Position numbers and translations under genes: made by a program. Under the pieces are notes generated by a model that worked only from the letters and a program-made list of their open reading frames with translations, did no database searches and was not told where the DNA came from. A stretch of DNA of 64,000 nucleotides, from the NCBI GenBank assembly GCA_964429815.1, contig CAYSCM010000001.1, forward strand, positions 224,001-288,000. Direction: 5' to 3'. This document shows, in pieces, positions 20,881-57,309 of this stretch. Source of the DNA: an uncultured Candidatus Saccharibacteria bacterium (GTDB lineage: Bacteria > Patescibacteriota > Minisyncoccia > Phycocordibacterales > CAYSCM01). The first letter of the stretch is position 1; each line of letters starts with the position of its first letter.

Positions 20881-22632
20881 ATGCACGTTGAAGAAAAACA
20901 GCTTAAGGAATTTATCCTTGACTCCGGCCTCGTTTCCCGAAGTGCTGTCGAGAGTGCTGAAAAGGAGGCAAAGGAGCAGCAATCCTCGATAGGTAAGGTT
21001 CTGGTGACCAAGGGATCGCTCTCCGAAGACGATTTGCGCCGGATGCAGGCGTACGTGCTCGGTATTCCCTACGTATCGCTGAAGCGCCAAAAAATCCCCT
21101 TCGAGATACTCTCCCTCATCCCCGAGCCCATCGCACGCAACCACAACATCGTCGCGTTTAACAAGCGCTCCGATAAAGAGCTTGAGGTCGCCATGCTCGA
21201 CACCGATGACCTCGCCGCCATCGAGTTTATCAAGAAAAAGACTGGGCTCAAGATACAGCCGCGCCTCACCGACACGGATTCCATCAAAGAGGTGCTTCTC
21301 CAGTATCAGCGCACGCTCAAGGCCGAGTTCGGCGACATAATTCGCAAAGAAACCGACGCCCTAAAGACGCTCTCAGAGAAGGAGGGTGATCTCTCCGAAG
21401 GGGACCTTAAGAAAATGGCCGAAGACCTCCCCGTCGTGCGTGTCGTCGACGCGCTCCTGCGCCACGCTATCATCCAGGACGCTTCCGACATACACATCGA
21501 GCCGCAGGAGCAGGAGGTTCTCGTCCGCTACCGCCTCGACGGCATTCTCCATGAGGCGATGACACTGCCGCGCTCTGCGGGCGCTTCCATCACGGCCCGC
21601 ATCAAGGTGCTCAGCAATCTCAAGCTCGACGAAAAACGCCTCCCCCAGGACGGCCGTTTCAAAATGGAGCTCAATGGCCAAAAGGTTTCTTTCCGCGTTT
21701 CCATTCTTCCCACCTACTTTGGCGAAAAGACCGTCATGCGTCTTTTGCGTGAGAATCGCTCGGGCTTCACGCTCGAGAGCCTCGGCTTTCACGGCAAAGG
21801 GCTCGACGACATCCACGAGGCCACGAAGCAGACGACCGGTATCATTCTGACCACGGGGCCCACCGGCTCAGGGAAGACGACAACGCTCTACACGGTCCTT
21901 GATATTCTCAACACGCCCGACGTTAATATTTCAACCATCGAAGACCCTATCGAGTACCAGATGCCGCGGGTCAATCAAACGCAGGTAAAACCCGAAATCG
22001 GCTTCACGTTTGCCAATGGATTGCGCAGCCTCCTGCGCCAGGACCCGGACATTCTCATGGTCGGCGAGATACGCGACGCCGAGACCGCGGGACTCGCCAT
22101 CAACGCCGCTCTCACGGGGCACCTCGTCCTCTCGACGCTCCACACTAACTCGGCCGCGGGCTCGATGCCGCGCCTCATCGACATGGGGGTACAGGCGTTT
22201 CTCATGGTCTCGACCATCAAGGTCATCATTGGTCAGCGCCTCGTGCGCAAACTGTGCGCGGACAGGGAAGAACACCAGCTCACCAAAGCGGAAATGGCGC
22301 AGCTCTCTCATGCCGTCGATATGGATAAAGTCCTCGTCGAGCTCAAGGCTGAAAAGATCGTGCCGCAAAACGCGACGTGGAGCACGGTGCCGTTTTACAA
22401 AGCAAAACCTTCGGCGGAGTGCGAAGACGGGTACCGTAGCCGCATCGGTATCCACGAAGTCCTCAAAGTGACACCGACCATCCGCGAACTCATCATCAAA
22501 GGTGCGACGACGGACCAGATCGAAAAGCAGGCACGCGCGGAGGGAATGCTTACCATGCTTGAGGATGGTGTCTTCAAAGCTGCGCAAGGCATTACGACCA
22601 TCGAAGAAGTATTGCGCGTCGTGTACGAATAA
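20881..22632 (+). CDS. pilB: type IV pilus assembly ATPase PilB (GspE family)
   Basis: 583 aa; N-terminal T2SE_N-like domain, Walker A GPTGSGKTTT, Asp/His boxes. Confidence 0.9.
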   Translation: MHVEEKQLKEFILDSGLVSRSAVESAEKEAKEQQSSIGKVLVTKGSLSEDDLRRMQAYVLGIPYVSLKRQKIPFEILSLIPEPIARNHNIVAFNKRSDKELEVAMLDTDDLAAIEFIKKKTGLKIQPRLTDTDSIKEVLLQYQRTLKAEFGDIIRKETDALKTLSEKEGDLSEGDLKKMAEDLPVVRVVDALLRHAIIQDASDIHIEPQEQEVLVRYRLDGILHEAMTLPRSAGASITARIKVLSNLKLDEKRLPQDGRFKMELNGQKVSFRVSILPTYFGEKTVMRLLRENRSGFTLESLGFHGKGLDDIHEATKQTTGIILTTGPTGSGKTTTLYTVLDILNTPDVNISTIEDPIEYQMPRVNQTQVKPEIGFTFANGLRSLLRQDPDILMVGEIRDAETAGLAINAALTGHLVLSTLHTNSAAGSMPRLIDMGVQAFLMVSTIKVIIGQRLVRKLCADREEHQLTKAEMAQLSHAVDMDKVLVELKAEKIVPQNATWSTVPFYKAKPSAECEDGYRSRIGIHEVLKVTPTIRELIIKGATTDQIEKQARAEGMLTMLEDGVFKAAQGITTIEEVLRVVYE

Positions 22633-23856: not shown

Positions 23857-24306
23857 ATGAACGCGCGCGGCTTCACATTGGTCGAGATACTCCTGACGAT
23901 CCTCATCATGATCCTGATCGCCGGTGTGCTCTTCTCCGCGTTCCGCTCCTTCACCTCGCGACGCATCCTCGACGGCGCATCGGCGGAGGTCGTCTCGGCG
24001 CTCTCACAAGCGCGACAGGATACCCTCGACTCGCTCGCCGACTCCTCCTATGGCGTACACTTCGGCAGCGGCAGCGTCGTCATTTTCAAAGGGGCTTCGT
24101 ACACGCCGGGGGATTCGAATAATCGGACCATTACGCTCACGTCGCTCGTGACCCTAACTCCCTCCCTCACCGGCGGCGCGATCGACATCACCTTCGCTCG
24201 TCTCACGGGGAAGGCGAGCGTATCGGGCACCGTCGTGGTCTCCCTTAAAGCCGACACGTCGCAAACACGCACGGTAACGGTGACGCTAGGCGGCATAAGC
24301 TCATGA
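23857..24306 (+). CDS. prepilin-type (type IV pilin/pseudopilin) protein
   Basis: N-terminal class III signal G/FTLVEILLT. Confidence 0.75.
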   Translation: MNARGFTLVEILLTILIMILIAGVLFSAFRSFTSRRILDGASAEVVSALSQARQDTLDSLADSSYGVHFGSGSVVIFKGASYTPGDSNNRTITLTSLVTLTPSLTGGAIDITFARLTGKASVSGTVVVSLKADTSQTRTVTVTLGGISS

Positions 24307-24791
24307 AACAAAACCTTCAACGCGGGGTCGGGCTCATCGAGGTGGCGATAGGGATCGGCATCGTCGCCGTTTTTATCGTCGGCGTCATACTCGCCTTTCG
24401 TCAGTACTTGGCGGTGGGGCTCGGGAATACCGCAAAAATCCAGGCCGCCTATTACGCCGAAGAAGGCATAGAAGTAGCGCGCGCGCTGCGGGACTCTAGC
24501 TGGAGCACGTTTGCCGCTCTCTCGACGACAACGACGTATTATCTCGCTCAGGTGAGCGGGGTGTGGGCGACGACAACGACCGCAACGACGACCCTCCCGG
24601 GGTTCACGCGCACTCTGCAGCTTGGGAGCGTCTATCGGGACAATTCGACGAGCAATATCGTAGCGGCCACCTCCTCGAATAAGTATCTCGATCCCGATGC
24701 GCGTCAAGTGACCGTGAGCGTTTCGTGGGTCGGTCCTACGCGCTCCACTATTTCCTATACGCTCACGACCTATCTCACTAAAATTTTCTGA
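24303..24791 (+). CDS. prepilin-type protein
   Basis: GVGLIEVAIGIGIVAV N-terminal methylation-type motif. Confidence 0.7.
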   Translation: MKQNLQRGVGLIEVAIGIGIVAVFIVGVILAFRQYLAVGLGNTAKIQAAYYAEEGIEVARALRDSSWSTFAALSTTTTYYLAQVSGVWATTTTATTTLPGFTRTLQLGSVYRDNSTSNIVAATSSNKYLDPDARQVTVSVSWVGPTRSTISYTLTTYLTKIF

Positions 24792-24793
24792 CC

Positions 24794-25309
24794 ATGAACA
24801 CGCACCGACACGATCGCGGATACTCGCTCGTCGAAATGATCATCTATATCGCCATTCTCGTCCTCGTCGCGGGGCTCGTCATAGAGGGACTCCTGCCGCT
24901 GGCTCGTTCATATCGGCAAGTGGTCCTTGCGCTTGCGATCGACGGCTCGGCGTCCGCAGCGCTCGAGCGGATGGTGCGCGAAATCCGGCAAGCAAGCGCC
25001 GTCTCGGGTTCGAGCGTCCTCAACTCCTCCCCGGGGACGCTCGTTCTCACTTCGACAGATAGTTCCGGAAACGGCACGACCATTACGTTTGATACGAGTG
25101 CGGGCGCCGTGCGCATCCAGGAGGGAGGAGGGGCTCCCTACAATCTCACCGGAGGAGGGGTGAGCGTTTCAAAACTTATATTTTCGACCCAGGCGAACGG
25201 TACAACCTCCGCGCTCGTCGGTATTGACATGGTACTTTCGGCGACGTTCGGTTCGACAACGCGTGCGAGCGAATTTAAAACAAGCGCGACGCTGCGCAAC
25301 AGCTACTAA
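24794..25309 (+). CDS. prepilin-type protein
   Basis: RGYSLVEMIIYIAILVLV N-terminal motif. Confidence 0.7.
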   Translation: MNTHRHDRGYSLVEMIIYIAILVLVAGLVIEGLLPLARSYRQVVLALAIDGSASAALERMVREIRQASAVSGSSVLNSSPGTLVLTSTDSSGNGTTITFDTSAGAVRIQEGGGAPYNLTGGGVSVSKLIFSTQANGTTSALVGIDMVLSATFGSTTRASEFKTSATLRNSY

Positions 25310-53049: not shown

Positions 53050-53352
53050 ATGAAAATCCACAAAGGCGATAGCGTCATAGTGATTTCCGGCAAGGACCGC
53101 GGCAAAACGGGCAAAGTTCTCCGCGCACTCCCATCCGAACACAAGGTCGTGGTCGAAGGCGTTAACTTGCTCAAGAAGCACCAGCGCCCCACGCAAAACA
53201 ACCAGAAGGGCCAAATCGTCGAGAAAACGATGCCCATCCATGTAAGTAACGTGATGCTCGTCGATGGGAAGGGTAAGCGCACGCGCGCCAGCTTCCGTCA
53301 CGTGGGAGAAAAGAAGCAGCGCTTTGCCAAAACGACGGGAAGTGAAATCTAA
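53050..53352 (+). CDS. rplX: 50S ribosomal protein L24
   Basis: 100 aa; KOW motif KIHKGDSVIVISGKDRGKTGKV. Confidence 0.9.
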   Translation: MKIHKGDSVIVISGKDRGKTGKVLRALPSEHKVVVEGVNLLKKHQRPTQNNQKGQIVEKTMPIHVSNVMLVDGKGKRTRASFRHVGEKKQRFAKTTGSEI

Positions 53353-53356
53353 TACC

Positions 53357-53878
53357 ATGCTCGAACTCATCAAAAAACAAAACGATGCGCACAAGGCGCT
53401 CTCCTACAAAAACGTAATGCAGACACCAAAGATCGAGAAGGTCATCGTCTCGATCGGCGTTGGCTCTGTGAAGGACAAGAAAAAATTTGACGTCATAACA
53501 GACCGCCTCGCGAAGATCACGGGCCAAAAGGCCGCTCCGCGCGCCGCCAAGAAATCGATTGCAACCTTTAAGCTGCGCCAGGGGGACGTCGTCGGGTTCC
53601 AAATCACGCTCCGAGGCTCGCGCATGAAGAATTTTCTCGAACGCCTTCTCGCGGTGGCGCTTCCACGTACCCGCGACTTCCGTGGGCTTGATCCTAAGGC
53701 TATCGACGAGATGGGTAACCTCACCATCGGCATTAAGGAGCACACTATTTTCCCTGAAACCTCTGACGAGGATCTCAAGGACGTCTTTGGATTTGCCGTG
53801 ACGGTGGTTACTACCGCCAAAAGTCGCGACGAGGCACTGAAGTATCTCACCTACCTCGGATTTCCTTTCAAGAAATAA
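53357..53878 (+). CDS. rplE: 50S ribosomal protein L5
   Basis: 173 aa from MLELIKKQNDAH; FDGRGNLTIGIKE-like L5 core. Confidence 0.9.
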   Translation: MLELIKKQNDAHKALSYKNVMQTPKIEKVIVSIGVGSVKDKKKFDVITDRLAKITGQKAAPRAAKKSIATFKLRQGDVVGFQITLRGSRMKNFLERLLAVALPRTRDFRGLDPKAIDEMGNLTIGIKEHTIFPETSDEDLKDVFGFAVTVVTTAKSRDEALKYLTYLGFPFKK

Positions 53879-53949
53879 AAAGCCCTAGCTTTCAGAGCAA
53901 TTTGTATTTTTTGGGCTTCAGCTTAGGTCGAGCTTTCGGACCGGAGCAG

Positions 53950-53979
53950 TTGACAATCTCCACTATTATATAGTATAAT
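53950..53979 (+). promoter_or_regulatory. promoter TTGACA-18-TATAAT driving the DGR target gene
   Basis: Exact hexamers; followed by RBS AAGGAGG 6 nt before ATG 54118. Confidence 0.6.
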
Positions 53980-54117
53980 TCTTTCCATAACACTAGTTCC
54001 TTGATTTGGTTTTGCCCTGGCAGGAAGAGCTTTCGTTGAGAGAATTTCCTGCTGTGGCAAAGCCCGTTCGGGCCGAGTCTGAACAGCACTGTAAAAACGC
54101 TCAAAGGAGGTAATCTC

Positions 54118-54759
54118 ATGAGCGAACAACAGATCGCCAAGCTCGCCGGCGCATTGGTGGAGCACCAACGGCATTTCGGTGCCATGCCAACCGAGGATCG
54201 CCAGTGGGCGATCCAGAATACTGAAGCGGCCATCGGTCTATTCGCCGTTGCAGTGAAGAACCGCGACAACGGCCAGACACAGAAACCAAGGACGCTCTTG
54301 AAGTTCGTGGCGAGCGTAAGCATCGCCGCGATCGAAGGCTTCAAAGTCTCCGAGAACTTCGAGGAGGGGAAGTTGGGCCCGGTCAGAATCTATTGGCTCG
54401 GCGACGACTTCAAGAAGCACTTCGGCCGCAAGACCGAGAGCGCTTTGGAAGCAGTCGAGCTGAAGGTTCACACTCTGACCAAGGCTTCGCTCGATGCCCC
54501 GATCATCGCGGAACTCGCGGGCAATGCGGAGATCACGATGGGCCAGTTCTTCGCTCTGCTATCGAAGCAGGGCAAGGGCGAGAGCGGGCCGCTCCTTACG
54601 AACGGCTACGCCAACATCGCCTACATCCGCGACGACGAGGGCGTCCTATGGGCGGTGGACGCCCACTGGCACGCCGGCCGCGGGGGCTGGGACGTCTACG
54701 CCGACTCAGTCGCCTACCCGGGCGAGTGGGACCGGGGTCGCCAGGTTCTTTCCCGCTGA
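54118..54759 (+). CDS. DGR target (variable) protein, 213 aa, C-terminal variable region; no signal peptide detected
   Basis: The last ~33 codons (VR 54658-54756) are the adenine-mutagenised copy of TR; TR N codons (AAC) correspond to D/H/H/G/R/D/Y/D/A/Y/G/D/R in VR. Confidence 0.8.
   Translation: MSEQQIAKLAGALVEHQRHFGAMPTEDRQWAIQNTEAAIGLFAVAVKNRDNGQTQKPRTLLKFVASVSIAAIEGFKVSENFEEGKLGPVRIYWLGDDFKKHFGRKTESALEAVELKVHTLTKASLDAPIIAELAGNAEITMGQFFALLSKQGKGESGPLLTNGYANIAYIRDDEGVLWAVDAHWHAGRGGWDVYADSVAYPGEWDRGRQVLSR
54658..54756 (+). repeat. DGR variable region (VR)
   Basis: ~100-bp alignment to TR with 16 mismatches, every one an A in TR (A->G/C/T in VR), and no non-A differences; homology ends just after the stop codon. 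Confidence 0.85.
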
Positions 54760-55096
54760 TTCTCGAACCCTTAAGCCCTCGGCCTGAGATCCTTTGACCC
54801 TCTGAAACTTTGCGAAGCAATTTGCGAAGGAGTAGGAGGGTCTTCTATTTTTTATTTTGATATAGTAAGACGTGAGGAGTGCTACTGATGCGGCGGCTAC
54901 GGCTTCCGCACAGCGCCTCGAGTATCTGTATCGCCAGAATCACGTCGGCTAAGGCTTGCGCGAGAGCGCGTGCAGGTACTCTTAAAAAAGATAAAGAATC
55001 GGTGCCTCATGCTGGCGGACTTCAAGGTCCCACATACGATACAGCTCGGAGAGTATTCGATGGGTGGTGTTATTGATGGCTTAAGGCACACAACGG

Positions 55097-55206
55097 ATGG
55101 GCGGTGAACGCCAACTGGAACGCCGACAACGGGGGCTGGAACGTCAACGCCAACTCAGTCGACAACCCGAACGAGTGGAACCGGGGTAACCAGGTTCTTT
55201 CCCGCT
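55097..55206 (+). repeat. DGR template repeat (TR); AAC-rich (11 AAC codons in VR frame); followed by hairpin CCCCGCCCTTCGGCGGGG + TTTT
   Basis: See VR; ORF-track entry 55104-55391 is the TR read in the VR frame, not a gene. Confidence 0.85.
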
Positions 55207-55570
55207 ATTCTTTTCTTCCCCCGCCCTTCGGCGGGGTTTTGCTTTCGAGGCCCCTCTTCCATCCCCCAACCATCCGACCCAGTTCGTGCACTTTTTCCGA
55301 GAGAGCAGCATACCTCTTTGTGTCAAGCGCGCGCAGCTCCCATGCGACTCGTAAAAGGAATTTCGCGGTGTCTATTTTTTTGAGTGTGTGAAAAAGTGTC
55401 GGCACTTTTTCACCCGAGCCCTGATAACTTGCGGTGAAGAGAAGTTCCAGCGTGTCTATGAGCGAAAAGTCGATGCGCTCACCGAGTGTATACCGGGCGT
55501 TTTTTGGAAAGTTGTTCCTGCACTCATGCCAGATTTTATATACTGCAACAGCATGTTCAATAACCGGCAA
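55205..55570 (-). CDS. avd: Avd-like accessory protein (four-helix-bundle / 23S rRNA-IVS protein family)
   Basis: 121 aa; HAVAVYKIWHECRNNFPKNARYTLGERIDFSLIDTLELLFTASY resembles IVS/Avd four-helix-bundle proteins; on the strand opposite TR and RT; stop codon abuts the TR 3' end. Confidence 0.65.
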   Translation of the reverse strand: MPVIEHAVAVYKIWHECRNNFPKNARYTLGERIDFSLIDTLELLFTASYQGSGEKVPTLFHTLKKIDTAKFLLRVAWELRALDTKRYAALSEKVHELGRMVGGWKRGLESKTPPKGGGRKE

Positions 55571-55590
55571 AAGTCGTTGGGGGGGTCGCT

Positions 55591-56592
55591 TTGAGGTCGC
55601 AACTCGCTCATACGTATGACGATATCATCTCGCTAGAAAATCTCCTTGCCGCATGGCAGGAATTCGTGCGCGGGAAGCGCAAAAAATGCGACGTGCAAGA
55701 GTTTCAGTTTCGGCTCGTGGACAATATTCTTGAGCTCTACCGTGACTTGAAAGAGAAAACATACACGCATGGGCCGTACCACCCTTTTAAAATAAGCGAC
55801 CCTAAACCCCGCGACATCCACAAGGCGAGCGTACGCGACCGGCTCCTCCACCACGCAATATATCGGAAACTCTATCCATTCTTCGACAAAATTTTCATTG
55901 CCGATTCGTACTCATGCAGGAAAGGCAAAGGAACACACAAGGCGATGAACCGTTTTCGTTCCTTTGCATACAAGGCGAGCTTAAATCACACAAAAACGCT
56001 TTGGGTGCTCAAGTGCGACATCAAAAAGTTCTTTGCATCAGTCGATCAGCATGTTCTCCTGGAGATTATTAGGCGCTGCATTTCTGACACCGACATCCTC
56101 TGGCTCATCGAGCGAGTCGTGCAGAGTTTCAATCCCAGCAGGGAGGGCACGGGTCTCCCGCTCGGCAATCTCACCTCGCAGCTTTTAGTGAATGTGTATA
56201 TGAACGAGTTTGACCAGTTTGTGAAGCGCACCCTCAAAGCGAAATACTACATCCGTTACGCCGATGATTTTGTGATTTTCTCGCAAGATGCGAAATGGCT
56301 CCAACAAATATGCAAATATATCAGCATATTCTTACGTGAACGGCTGAAACTCGAATTGCACCCTAATAAAGTATCGATCACAACGCTCGCATCCGGTATC
56401 GATTTTCTCGGCTGGGTGAATTTTCCTGATCATCGCGTGCTACGCACCTCGACAAAGCGGCGGATGTTGAAGCGAATGACTGGTGAGCAATCTAAAGAGA
56501 TCATCAAACCGTATTTAGGGCTTCTTCAACATGGGAACAGCAAAAAGCTGCAATTGAAAATCTTGTTTGACACAGCAGAGGCAATCAAGTAA
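55591..56592 (+). CDS. DGR-type reverse transcriptase (TTG start)
   Basis: 333 aa; motifs [45 protein letters not shown] (SQ in place of group-II QG), RYADDFVIF; no maturase/X domain; G-rich RBS. Confidence 0.85.
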
Positions 56593-56734
56593 GCTCATCC
56601 CACAAAGCCGAGTAGGGCTTTTCTTTTGGCAAGTGCTAAACCGTCTACGCGGTCGCATACTCCCAGAAGAAAGGGAAGAATACTTCTCTTTTTTCACTCC
56701 ACACGTGGGGGATTGCCAGAAGTTCGTATACCAC

Positions 56735-56920
56735 ATGGCAAAAACCTCAGTCATCGTTCGAAGCAAACGAAAGCCCAAGTTTAAGTCTCGGGTTGTTCGT
56801 CGCTGTTTCAAGTGCGGACGCAAGCGCAGCTACATGCGCGACTTTGACCTGTGCCGCATCTGCTTCCGCGAACTCGCGAACGAAGGCATGATCCCGGGCA
56901 TTAAGAAAAGCTCCTGGTAA
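56735..56920 (+). CDS. rpsN: 30S ribosomal protein S14, zinc-binding type Z
   Basis: 61 aa; [25 protein letters not shown] (C4 zinc ribbon). Confidence 0.85.
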
Positions 56921-56925
56921 TTTCC

Positions 56926-57309
56926 ATGTTGATCACTGACCCAGTCGGAGATTTCATAGTGCGCCTCAAGAACGCGACCGACGCGGGACGCTCGTCGACG
57001 ACGGCGCCCTACAGCAAGCTGAGAGCCGCTATCGCGGAGAGTCTCAAGGGCCGCGGCTTCATCAAGAGCTACGACAAACGCGGCAAGAAGGCGAAAAAGG
57101 TCATCGAAATCGAACTCATCCCTGAGAAGATCCAAGGCGTCGCGCGCGTCAGCAAGCCGGGCCGCCGCCTCTACATTCGCGTCAACGAGATCAAGGCCGT
57201 CCGTTCCGGACAAGGAGCACTCGTGCTTTCGACCCCGAAGGGAATTCTCACCGATCGCGAAGCCCGCAAAGAAAACGTCGGCGGCGAAGCGCTCTTCAAA
57301 ATCTGGTAA
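56926..57309 (+). CDS. rpsH: 30S ribosomal protein S8
   Basis: 127 aa; DPVGDFIVRLKNA signature. Confidence 0.9.
   Translation: MLITDPVGDFIVRLKNATDAGRSSTTAPYSKLRAAIAESLKGRGFIKSYDKRGKKAKKVIEIELIPEKIQGVARVSKPGRRLYIRVNEIKAVRSGQGALVLSTPKGILTDREARKENVGGEALFKIW

Follow-up and report, generated by a model that had tools for sequence, protein, structure and literature searches.

DGR Targets in Patescibacteria and Comparable Systems

Patescibacteria, which are ultra-small and host-dependent, carry DGRs unusually often. In the survey of Roux et al. (2021; PMC8144416), the targets of CPR clade 2 were typically devoid of a recognisable TM segment or other domains, and the genuine non-membrane-bound status of such targets "remains to be established". 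Wu et al. (2018; PMC5758913) describe 126 CPR DGRs with mostly one cassette architecture, CPR VR classes (UVR1-6) of unknown fold, and five CPR DGRs in which genes for ribosomal proteins occur among those of the DGR. Cytoplasmic CLec targets were predicted in conflict systems of other bacteria by Dore et al. (2024; PMC10907252), who also cited fusions of CLec with AAA as the target architecture found most often in CPR.

The locus described here is located in the window, which is the whole stretch of 64,000 nt that was analysed and to whose positions all coordinates refer. Like CPR clade 2 and the set of Wu et al., it represents a cellular DGR of Patescibacteria in which the VR is C-terminal, the target is without a recognisable TM segment, signal or domain, and a divergently oriented avd lies between the TR and the RT gene. 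CPR DGRs beside ribosomal protein genes, as at the window locus, were also known before. To describe the target as signal-less and outside the known families is thus correct, and it follows a CPR pattern that is already documented. The family in the window differs from those of the CPR surveys by an assigned CLec-like fold and a defined N-terminal module, both of which the surveys leave open; it may coincide with one of the classes UVR1-6.

Compared with the FGE-subclass CLec proteins, such as Mtd of the Bordetella phage and TvpA of Treponema denticola (PDB 2y3c), the target is without sequence similarity to FGE-sulfatase or PDB chains. TvpA has a lipoprotein signal and Mtd has fibre-forming N-terminal domains, whereas the target has neither, is much smaller, and carries a three-helix N-terminal module instead. 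AvpA of Nanoarchaeota (PMC5006420) is likewise a small, stand-alone DGR target of an ultra-small, host-dependent lineage; it was also unassignable by sequence and then found to be CLec-like, and its repertoire of 10^13 is comparable to that calculated below. No sequence or close structural similarity between the target and AvpA was found. The target further resembles the CLec sensors of Dore et al. (2024; PMC10907252), namely the STAND NTPase and MoxR systems of Thiohalocapsa PB-PSB1 and the CPR CLec-AAA ATPase fusions, in being a DGR-diversified CLec protein without an export signal, and the logic suggested there, a variable sensor with a constant transducing part, is the same as that proposed here. 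Unlike those systems, the target has no fused or adjacent NTPase, protease or effector (Pfam, PADLOC, 24 loci), and its constant part is just a helical module of 50 residues.

A Complete DGR Cassette in a Ribosomal Protein Operon

The window contains a complete DGR with VR, TR, Avd and RT (Table 1), and its target is the gene at 54118-54759, as follows from a repeat pair that differs only at adenines and from the avd and RT genes downstream. The VR and TR differ at 16 of 110 nt, and all 16 mismatches are at adenines of the TR (16 of its 28 adenines being used) and at codon position 1 or 2. By our own arithmetic, the chance that 16 of 16 mismatches fall on A is approximately 2e-10 when A makes up about 25% of the TR. 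The 15 variable codons allow approximately 2.2x10^15 possible proteins, and a stop codon cannot be reached. In the family alignment, the columns that correspond to TR-adenine codons mostly had an entropy of about 3-3.6 bits (2.1-2.8 at three of them), whereas W184, W191, W204 and most other scaffold columns were below about 1.3 bits. The VR/TR pattern was unique in the 64-kb window, where neither a third VR/TR copy nor a second VR was found.

Table 1. Coordinates of the target gene, its protein segments and the other elements of the DGR locus in the window.
Feature	Position	Strand	Basis
Sigma-70-type promoter, predicted (TTGACA, 18 nt, TATAAT)	53950..53979	+	12/12 hexamer matches, pattern match
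Shine-Dalgarno sequence AAAGGAGGT	54103..54111	+	Read from sequence; spacing to ATG 7 nt
DGR target (variable protein) gene, 213 aa	54118..54759	+	ORF; VR at 3' end; 103 homologues; AlphaFold model
N-terminal handle, residues 1-50, three helices (3-22, 25-33, 35-47)	54118..54267	+	Model, profile search
Low-confidence linker, residues 51-60	54268..54297	+	Mean pLDDT 58; residues 53-55 below 50
C-terminal alpha/beta domain, residues 61-213	54298..54756	+	Model reading as divergent C-type-lectin/FGE-like fold; pLDDT 94-98
Variable region (VR), residues 178-213	54648..54757	+	Gapless alignment to TR
Inverted repeat GACCCTC...GAGGGTC with inner stem	54796..54842	+	MFE and centroid folds
Template region (TR), 11 AAC codons and 4 other adenine-bearing codons	55097..55206	+	Repeat of VR
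Avd accessory protein, 121 aa	55205..55570	-	PF22296, phrog_3206, NF033474
GC-rich hairpin with T run, terminator-like	55219..55236	+	7 GC pairs, pattern match
DGR reverse transcriptase (RT)	55591..56592	+	PF00078, phrog_1423, LGNLTSQ and YADD motifs

Avd was recognised by PF22296 (bAvd; 6e-14, 52.8 bits, exceeding the cut-off of 40), phrog_3206 ("Avd protein of DGR"; 2.8e-21) and NF033474 (1.5e-20, 73.4 bits, slightly below the cut-off of 80). The RT matched PF00078 (4e-26) and, over residues 5-324, phrog_1423 (1.4e-107), and both sequence motifs were present in its full-length translation; a TTG at 55591 is the favoured start, the alternative gene call being a GTG at 55666. The cassette (approximately 2.8 kb; region 53264-57309) lies within the ribosomal-protein (spc) operon, flanked by rplE (which ends at 53878) on one side and by rpsN/rpsH (from about 56700) on the other. 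The G+C content of its Avd-RT part was 0.45-0.49, compared with 0.55-0.60 in the flanking genes.

Several smaller elements were observed around the repeats. The inverted repeat about 40 nt 3' of the VR is a weak candidate for a DGR hairpin or cruciform, the folding energy of the fragment being no better than that of shuffled sequences (z = -0.09). A terminator-like hairpin is situated directly 3' of the TR, where it overlaps the 3' end of the convergent avd. Because it follows straight after the TR, the TR RNA may stop there and possibly be separate from the RT transcript, unlike the arrangement in the Bordetella phage. An ORF of 95 codons (55104-55391, + strand) starts within the TR (MNANWNADNGGWNVNANS...), and in the neighbour analysis TR-derived ORFs of this kind clustered in 8 loci; they are almost certainly the TR copy of the target's frame and not genes. 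Apart from one sub-threshold chance match, a search of the cassette against Rfam yielded nothing.

Start Codon and Export Signals

The protein opens with MSEQQIAKLAGALVEHQRH, and an MSEQQ or MTEQQ N-terminus is common to most homologues. Back to the in-frame stop at 54037, there is no ATG, GTG or TTG that could serve as an alternative start, and the start codon at 54118 is therefore secure. The predicted sigma-70-type promoter is located approximately 140 nt 5' of the target, in the AT-rich stretch that separates it from rplE, which suggests that the gene may have a strong promoter of its own inside the ribosomal operon.

The presence of export signals was judged by hydropathy, by inspection of the sequence and by comparison across the family. 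No signal peptide, Tat motif, lipobox or TM segment was detected in the target by hydropathy and inspection. Its best 19-residue Kyte-Doolittle mean was 1.38, on a predicted beta strand and not at the N-terminus, and its best N-terminal 10-residue value was 1.39, compared with a median of 1.34 for 73 ORFs of the same window that served as control. By the same N-terminal measure, the positive controls (pilins, SecY and a classic signal-peptide protein) reached 2.4-4.1. A lipobox is not possible because the protein contains no cysteine. Among 242 family members and handle-bearing relatives, no signal peptide, TM segment, lipobox or sortase-type motif was found; these proteins contained few hydrophobic 19-residue stretches, all of which started at residue 32 or later and none of which was N-terminal. 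Some homologues carry N-terminal extensions, but these lack hydrophobic character and seem to result from wrongly called starts.

By these criteria, the absence of an export signal is strongly, though not definitively, supported, and signals of Patescibacteria could escape recognition. Given that no Sec, Tat, lipoprotein or membrane-anchor signal was recognised, the target is most probably a soluble protein that is either cytoplasmic or exported by a non-classical route only. These results agree with the preliminary description, which had called 54118-54759 a DGR-diversified protein without a hydrophobic signal or TM segment, had written out a C-terminal VR motif that matches WAVDAHWHAGRGGWDVYADSVAYPGEWDRGRQVLSR, and had named an alternative upstream start with a signal peptide as a finding that would speak against it.

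Protein Family and Fold

The target had no match in Pfam, NCBIfam, PHROGs or PADLOC. In PDB, neither the protein nor the family profile found any sequence beyond chance matches to calmodulin, and Pfam searches of 94 family members returned noise only (DIX at 0.019 and similar) and no FGE-sulfatase at E <= 1. In a search of 5.8 billion proteins, 103 relatives of approximately 160-260 residues were found, none of which has a Pfam domain; the named ones all belong to Patescibacteria (Kaiserbacteria, Adlerbacteria and others). Judging from these homologues, the target is no orphan and belongs to a sizeable, uncharacterised family of Patescibacteria. A phage receptor-binding protein was considered and rejected on account of the housekeeping context and of the PHROGs matches, which were to Avd and RT and not to the target.

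An AlphaFold model built from the family alignment had a mean pLDDT of 91. In this model, the VR spans the three final beta strands that are predicted, and its invariant end, QVLSR, forms the last of them. The same position of the invariant 3' end has been described for Mtd, TvpA and AvpA, and the variable residues, as placed by the secondary structure of the model, map to the last three strands as they do in Mtd and TvpA. No significant match to the model was found by Foldseek in PDB and BFVD. From the model, it is concluded that the C-terminal domain adopts a divergent CLec-type fold, which is the standard scaffold of DGR targets.

The preliminary description had suggested a compact, CLec-like C-terminal fold, and this is in line with the reading of residues 61-213, for which the structural check gave a confident model of that type and no significant Foldseek match. 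Its statement that the protein belongs to no obvious family holds for the curated collections, as the HMM searches confirmed, and is too strong in so far as the protein has 103 relatives in a Patescibacteria family with a standard DGR fold. The suggestion that it may represent an unrecognised kind of variable protein goes too far, since CPR targets without a signal are on record (PMC8144416, PMC5758913) and cytoplasmic CLec proteins have been predicted elsewhere (PMC10907252).

The N-Terminal Handle and the Loci of Relatives

A profile of the handle (residues 1-50), searched against 1.84 billion representatives, matched 268 clusters (163 of them at E <= 1e-10), nearly always at residue 1 of proteins of approximately 200-240 aa. 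In 50 proteins of the window's type, the mean pairwise identity was 68% in the handle vs. 38% in the CLec scaffold. The remainders that were left after stripping the handle fell into 21 groups, the largest of which was the window's type. Profile comparison showed that two C-domain types are distantly related to the window's type (97% and 93% probability), and relatedness to it was not detectable for six multi-member types. Behind the handle, at least seven types of C-terminal domain occur, with no detectable relationship among them. These types are frequently linked to DGRs, and many end in VR-typical tails rich in tryptophan, tyrosine, aspartate and glycine. One of the unrelated types (P0096, locus L006) has a VR/TR pair with 18 of 19 mismatches at adenines and an RT downstream (locus L011 is the same contig as L006). 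In approximately half of the window-type family, the place of the handle is taken by other N-terminal segments, which are short and non-hydrophobic.

The sequences L005:1-2455 and L006:4281-6636 are 99.7% identical over 1900 nt that include ruvC, yebC, the intergenic region and approximately 60 handle codons. From about codon 60 the similarity is lost, and the same handle is followed by unrelated C-domains (P0098 and P0096, respectively), which points to a cassette exchange behind the handle. The 268 clusters, the identity of 68% vs. 38%, the varied C-domains and the break between L005 and L006 together identify the handle as the constant and most constrained module, behind which binding domains are swapped. 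In the family alignment, the handle and the remainder of the target show separate histories. The top match of the handle profile search, P0104 (279 aa), contains two tandem handle copies (MTEQQIPKLVAS... twice). Pfam searches of longer or different handle-bearing architectures found nothing that accounts for the handle. No prior description of the handle or of the family's fold was found in the papers cited here.

The order target-TR-Avd(-)-RT is kept in the relatives L004, L033 and L006. Genomes were scanned with the handle alignment as query, the whole-family alignment having no conserved block. In 12-13 of 22 handle-bearing species-representative genomes, avd lies on the minus strand and is accompanied by an RT gene downstream; the VR/TR mismatches at these loci are at A only or nearly so, and their RTs are 50-70% identical to that of the window. 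All informatively named genomes are Patescibacteria, and one bin is labelled Gammaproteobacteria. About 9 of the 22 genome loci are without a nearby RT. Beyond Avd and RT, no neighbour gene was conserved across 24 loci. Relatives occur at other housekeeping sites, including ruvC/yebC-ruvB, HIT-RecJ and ribonucleotide reductase-Gmad2. The homologues L001:6001-6627 and L032:5001-5642, from two species, share the TIM-PGK-HIT / RecJ-RNaseH-ComEC locus; no RT was called within 5-6 kb of either, and no TR repeat was found at L001. Homologues without an RT may be remote targets that are served in trans, or orphans.

Pilus genes were also encountered. In 5 of 24 loci, and also in L032, a PilB/T2SSE-type ATPase is encoded no more than 8 kb from the handle gene (the loci concerned are L011, L017, L024, L026, L030 and L032). 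At best, this amounts to a weak enrichment, and some of these loci are possibly syntenic. In the window, a pilus cluster comprises a PilB-like ATPase (20881-22632), an adjoining 404-aa ORF and pilin-like ORFs (23857-25309); a distance of 31 kb separates its PilB gene from the target.

Proposed Function and Alternative Explanations

The explanation that we favour, with moderate confidence, is that the target is a variable protein of an intact CPR-type DGR and works as a soluble "variable binder plus constant adaptor". The RT, together with Avd, would reverse-transcribe the TR RNA and make errors at its adenines; the resulting cDNA would replace the last 110 nt of the target gene, thereby rewriting 15 codons on the last three strands of the lectin-like domain. 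The region of the last strands is the ligand-binding face in solved DGR targets. A flexible linker joins the constant three-helix handle to the variable lectin-like binder. We infer that the protein would be soluble and most likely remain in the cytoplasm, that its lectin-like face would capture a changing ligand, and that the handle would connect it with a conserved partner whose gene lies at another place in the genome.

As the main alternative, the protein would reach the cell surface by a non-classical route, a serious possibility to which we nevertheless assign a clearly minor share. Here the target would be an adhesin whose handle docks non-covalently on a type IV pilus or envelope component and whose lectin face binds host or particle surfaces during episymbiotic life. 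The prior for a cytoplasmic role is lowered by the extracellular action of most characterised DGR targets; these include phage Mtd (tail fibres), Legionella LdtA, Treponema TvpA and the pilus adhesins of Bacteroides. A constant docking module with interchangeable binders also resembles the mounting of Mtd on the fibre, and the PilB genes near several handle genes, together with the pilus cluster of the window, would suit such a role. However, the 242 relatives are devoid of export and sortase-type motifs, no secretion gene is among the conserved neighbours in 24 loci, and the proximity of PilB is as weakly enriched as described above and does not extend to the window, where the distance is 31 kb. 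For an ordinary secreted DGR target, with a signal peptide or lipobox hidden upstream of a mis-assigned start, no support was found; a few homologues are annotated with N-terminal extensions, but these extensions are non-hydrophobic and apparently mis-called. The in-frame stop at 54037 without a start codon before 54118, the strong Shine-Dalgarno sequence at the correct spacing and the family-wide conservation of the start effectively refute an upstream start, and this explanation is highly improbable.

The element could also have ceased to diversify, leaving a fixed small binding protein that descended from a DGR target. Four contigs, which come from two or more sequencing runs, encode an identical target protein, and neither an RT nor a TR lies within 5-8 kb of several homologues (L001, L003 and about 9 of the 22 genome loci; L032 is without an RT). 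These contigs are consensus assemblies, however, in which minority variants are hidden. The RT of the window is full length with the catalytic YADD and the LGNLTSQ motif, Avd is intact, and the 110 nt of the VR and TR contain not one non-adenine mismatch, which a long-inactive pair should have gained; a relic is therefore improbable.

Implications

The locus provides a clean and tractable example of a CPR DGR target, since the protein is small, confidently modelled, secure in its start, without an export signal and preceded by a predicted consensus promoter. The additions made here to the published surveys are the fold assignment of the family and the definition of the handle module. A more far-reaching reading, which we regard as rather doubtful, is that Patescibacteria possess a modular system in which interchangeable, unrelated DGR binding domains are mounted on one constant adaptor and act as intracellular, antibody-like sensors that signal via a conserved handle partner. 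The molecules sensed might be, for example, phage- or host-derived. If true, this reading would settle whether CPR DGR targets are genuinely non-membrane-bound, and the handle partner, once found, would reveal where the variable binder is deployed.
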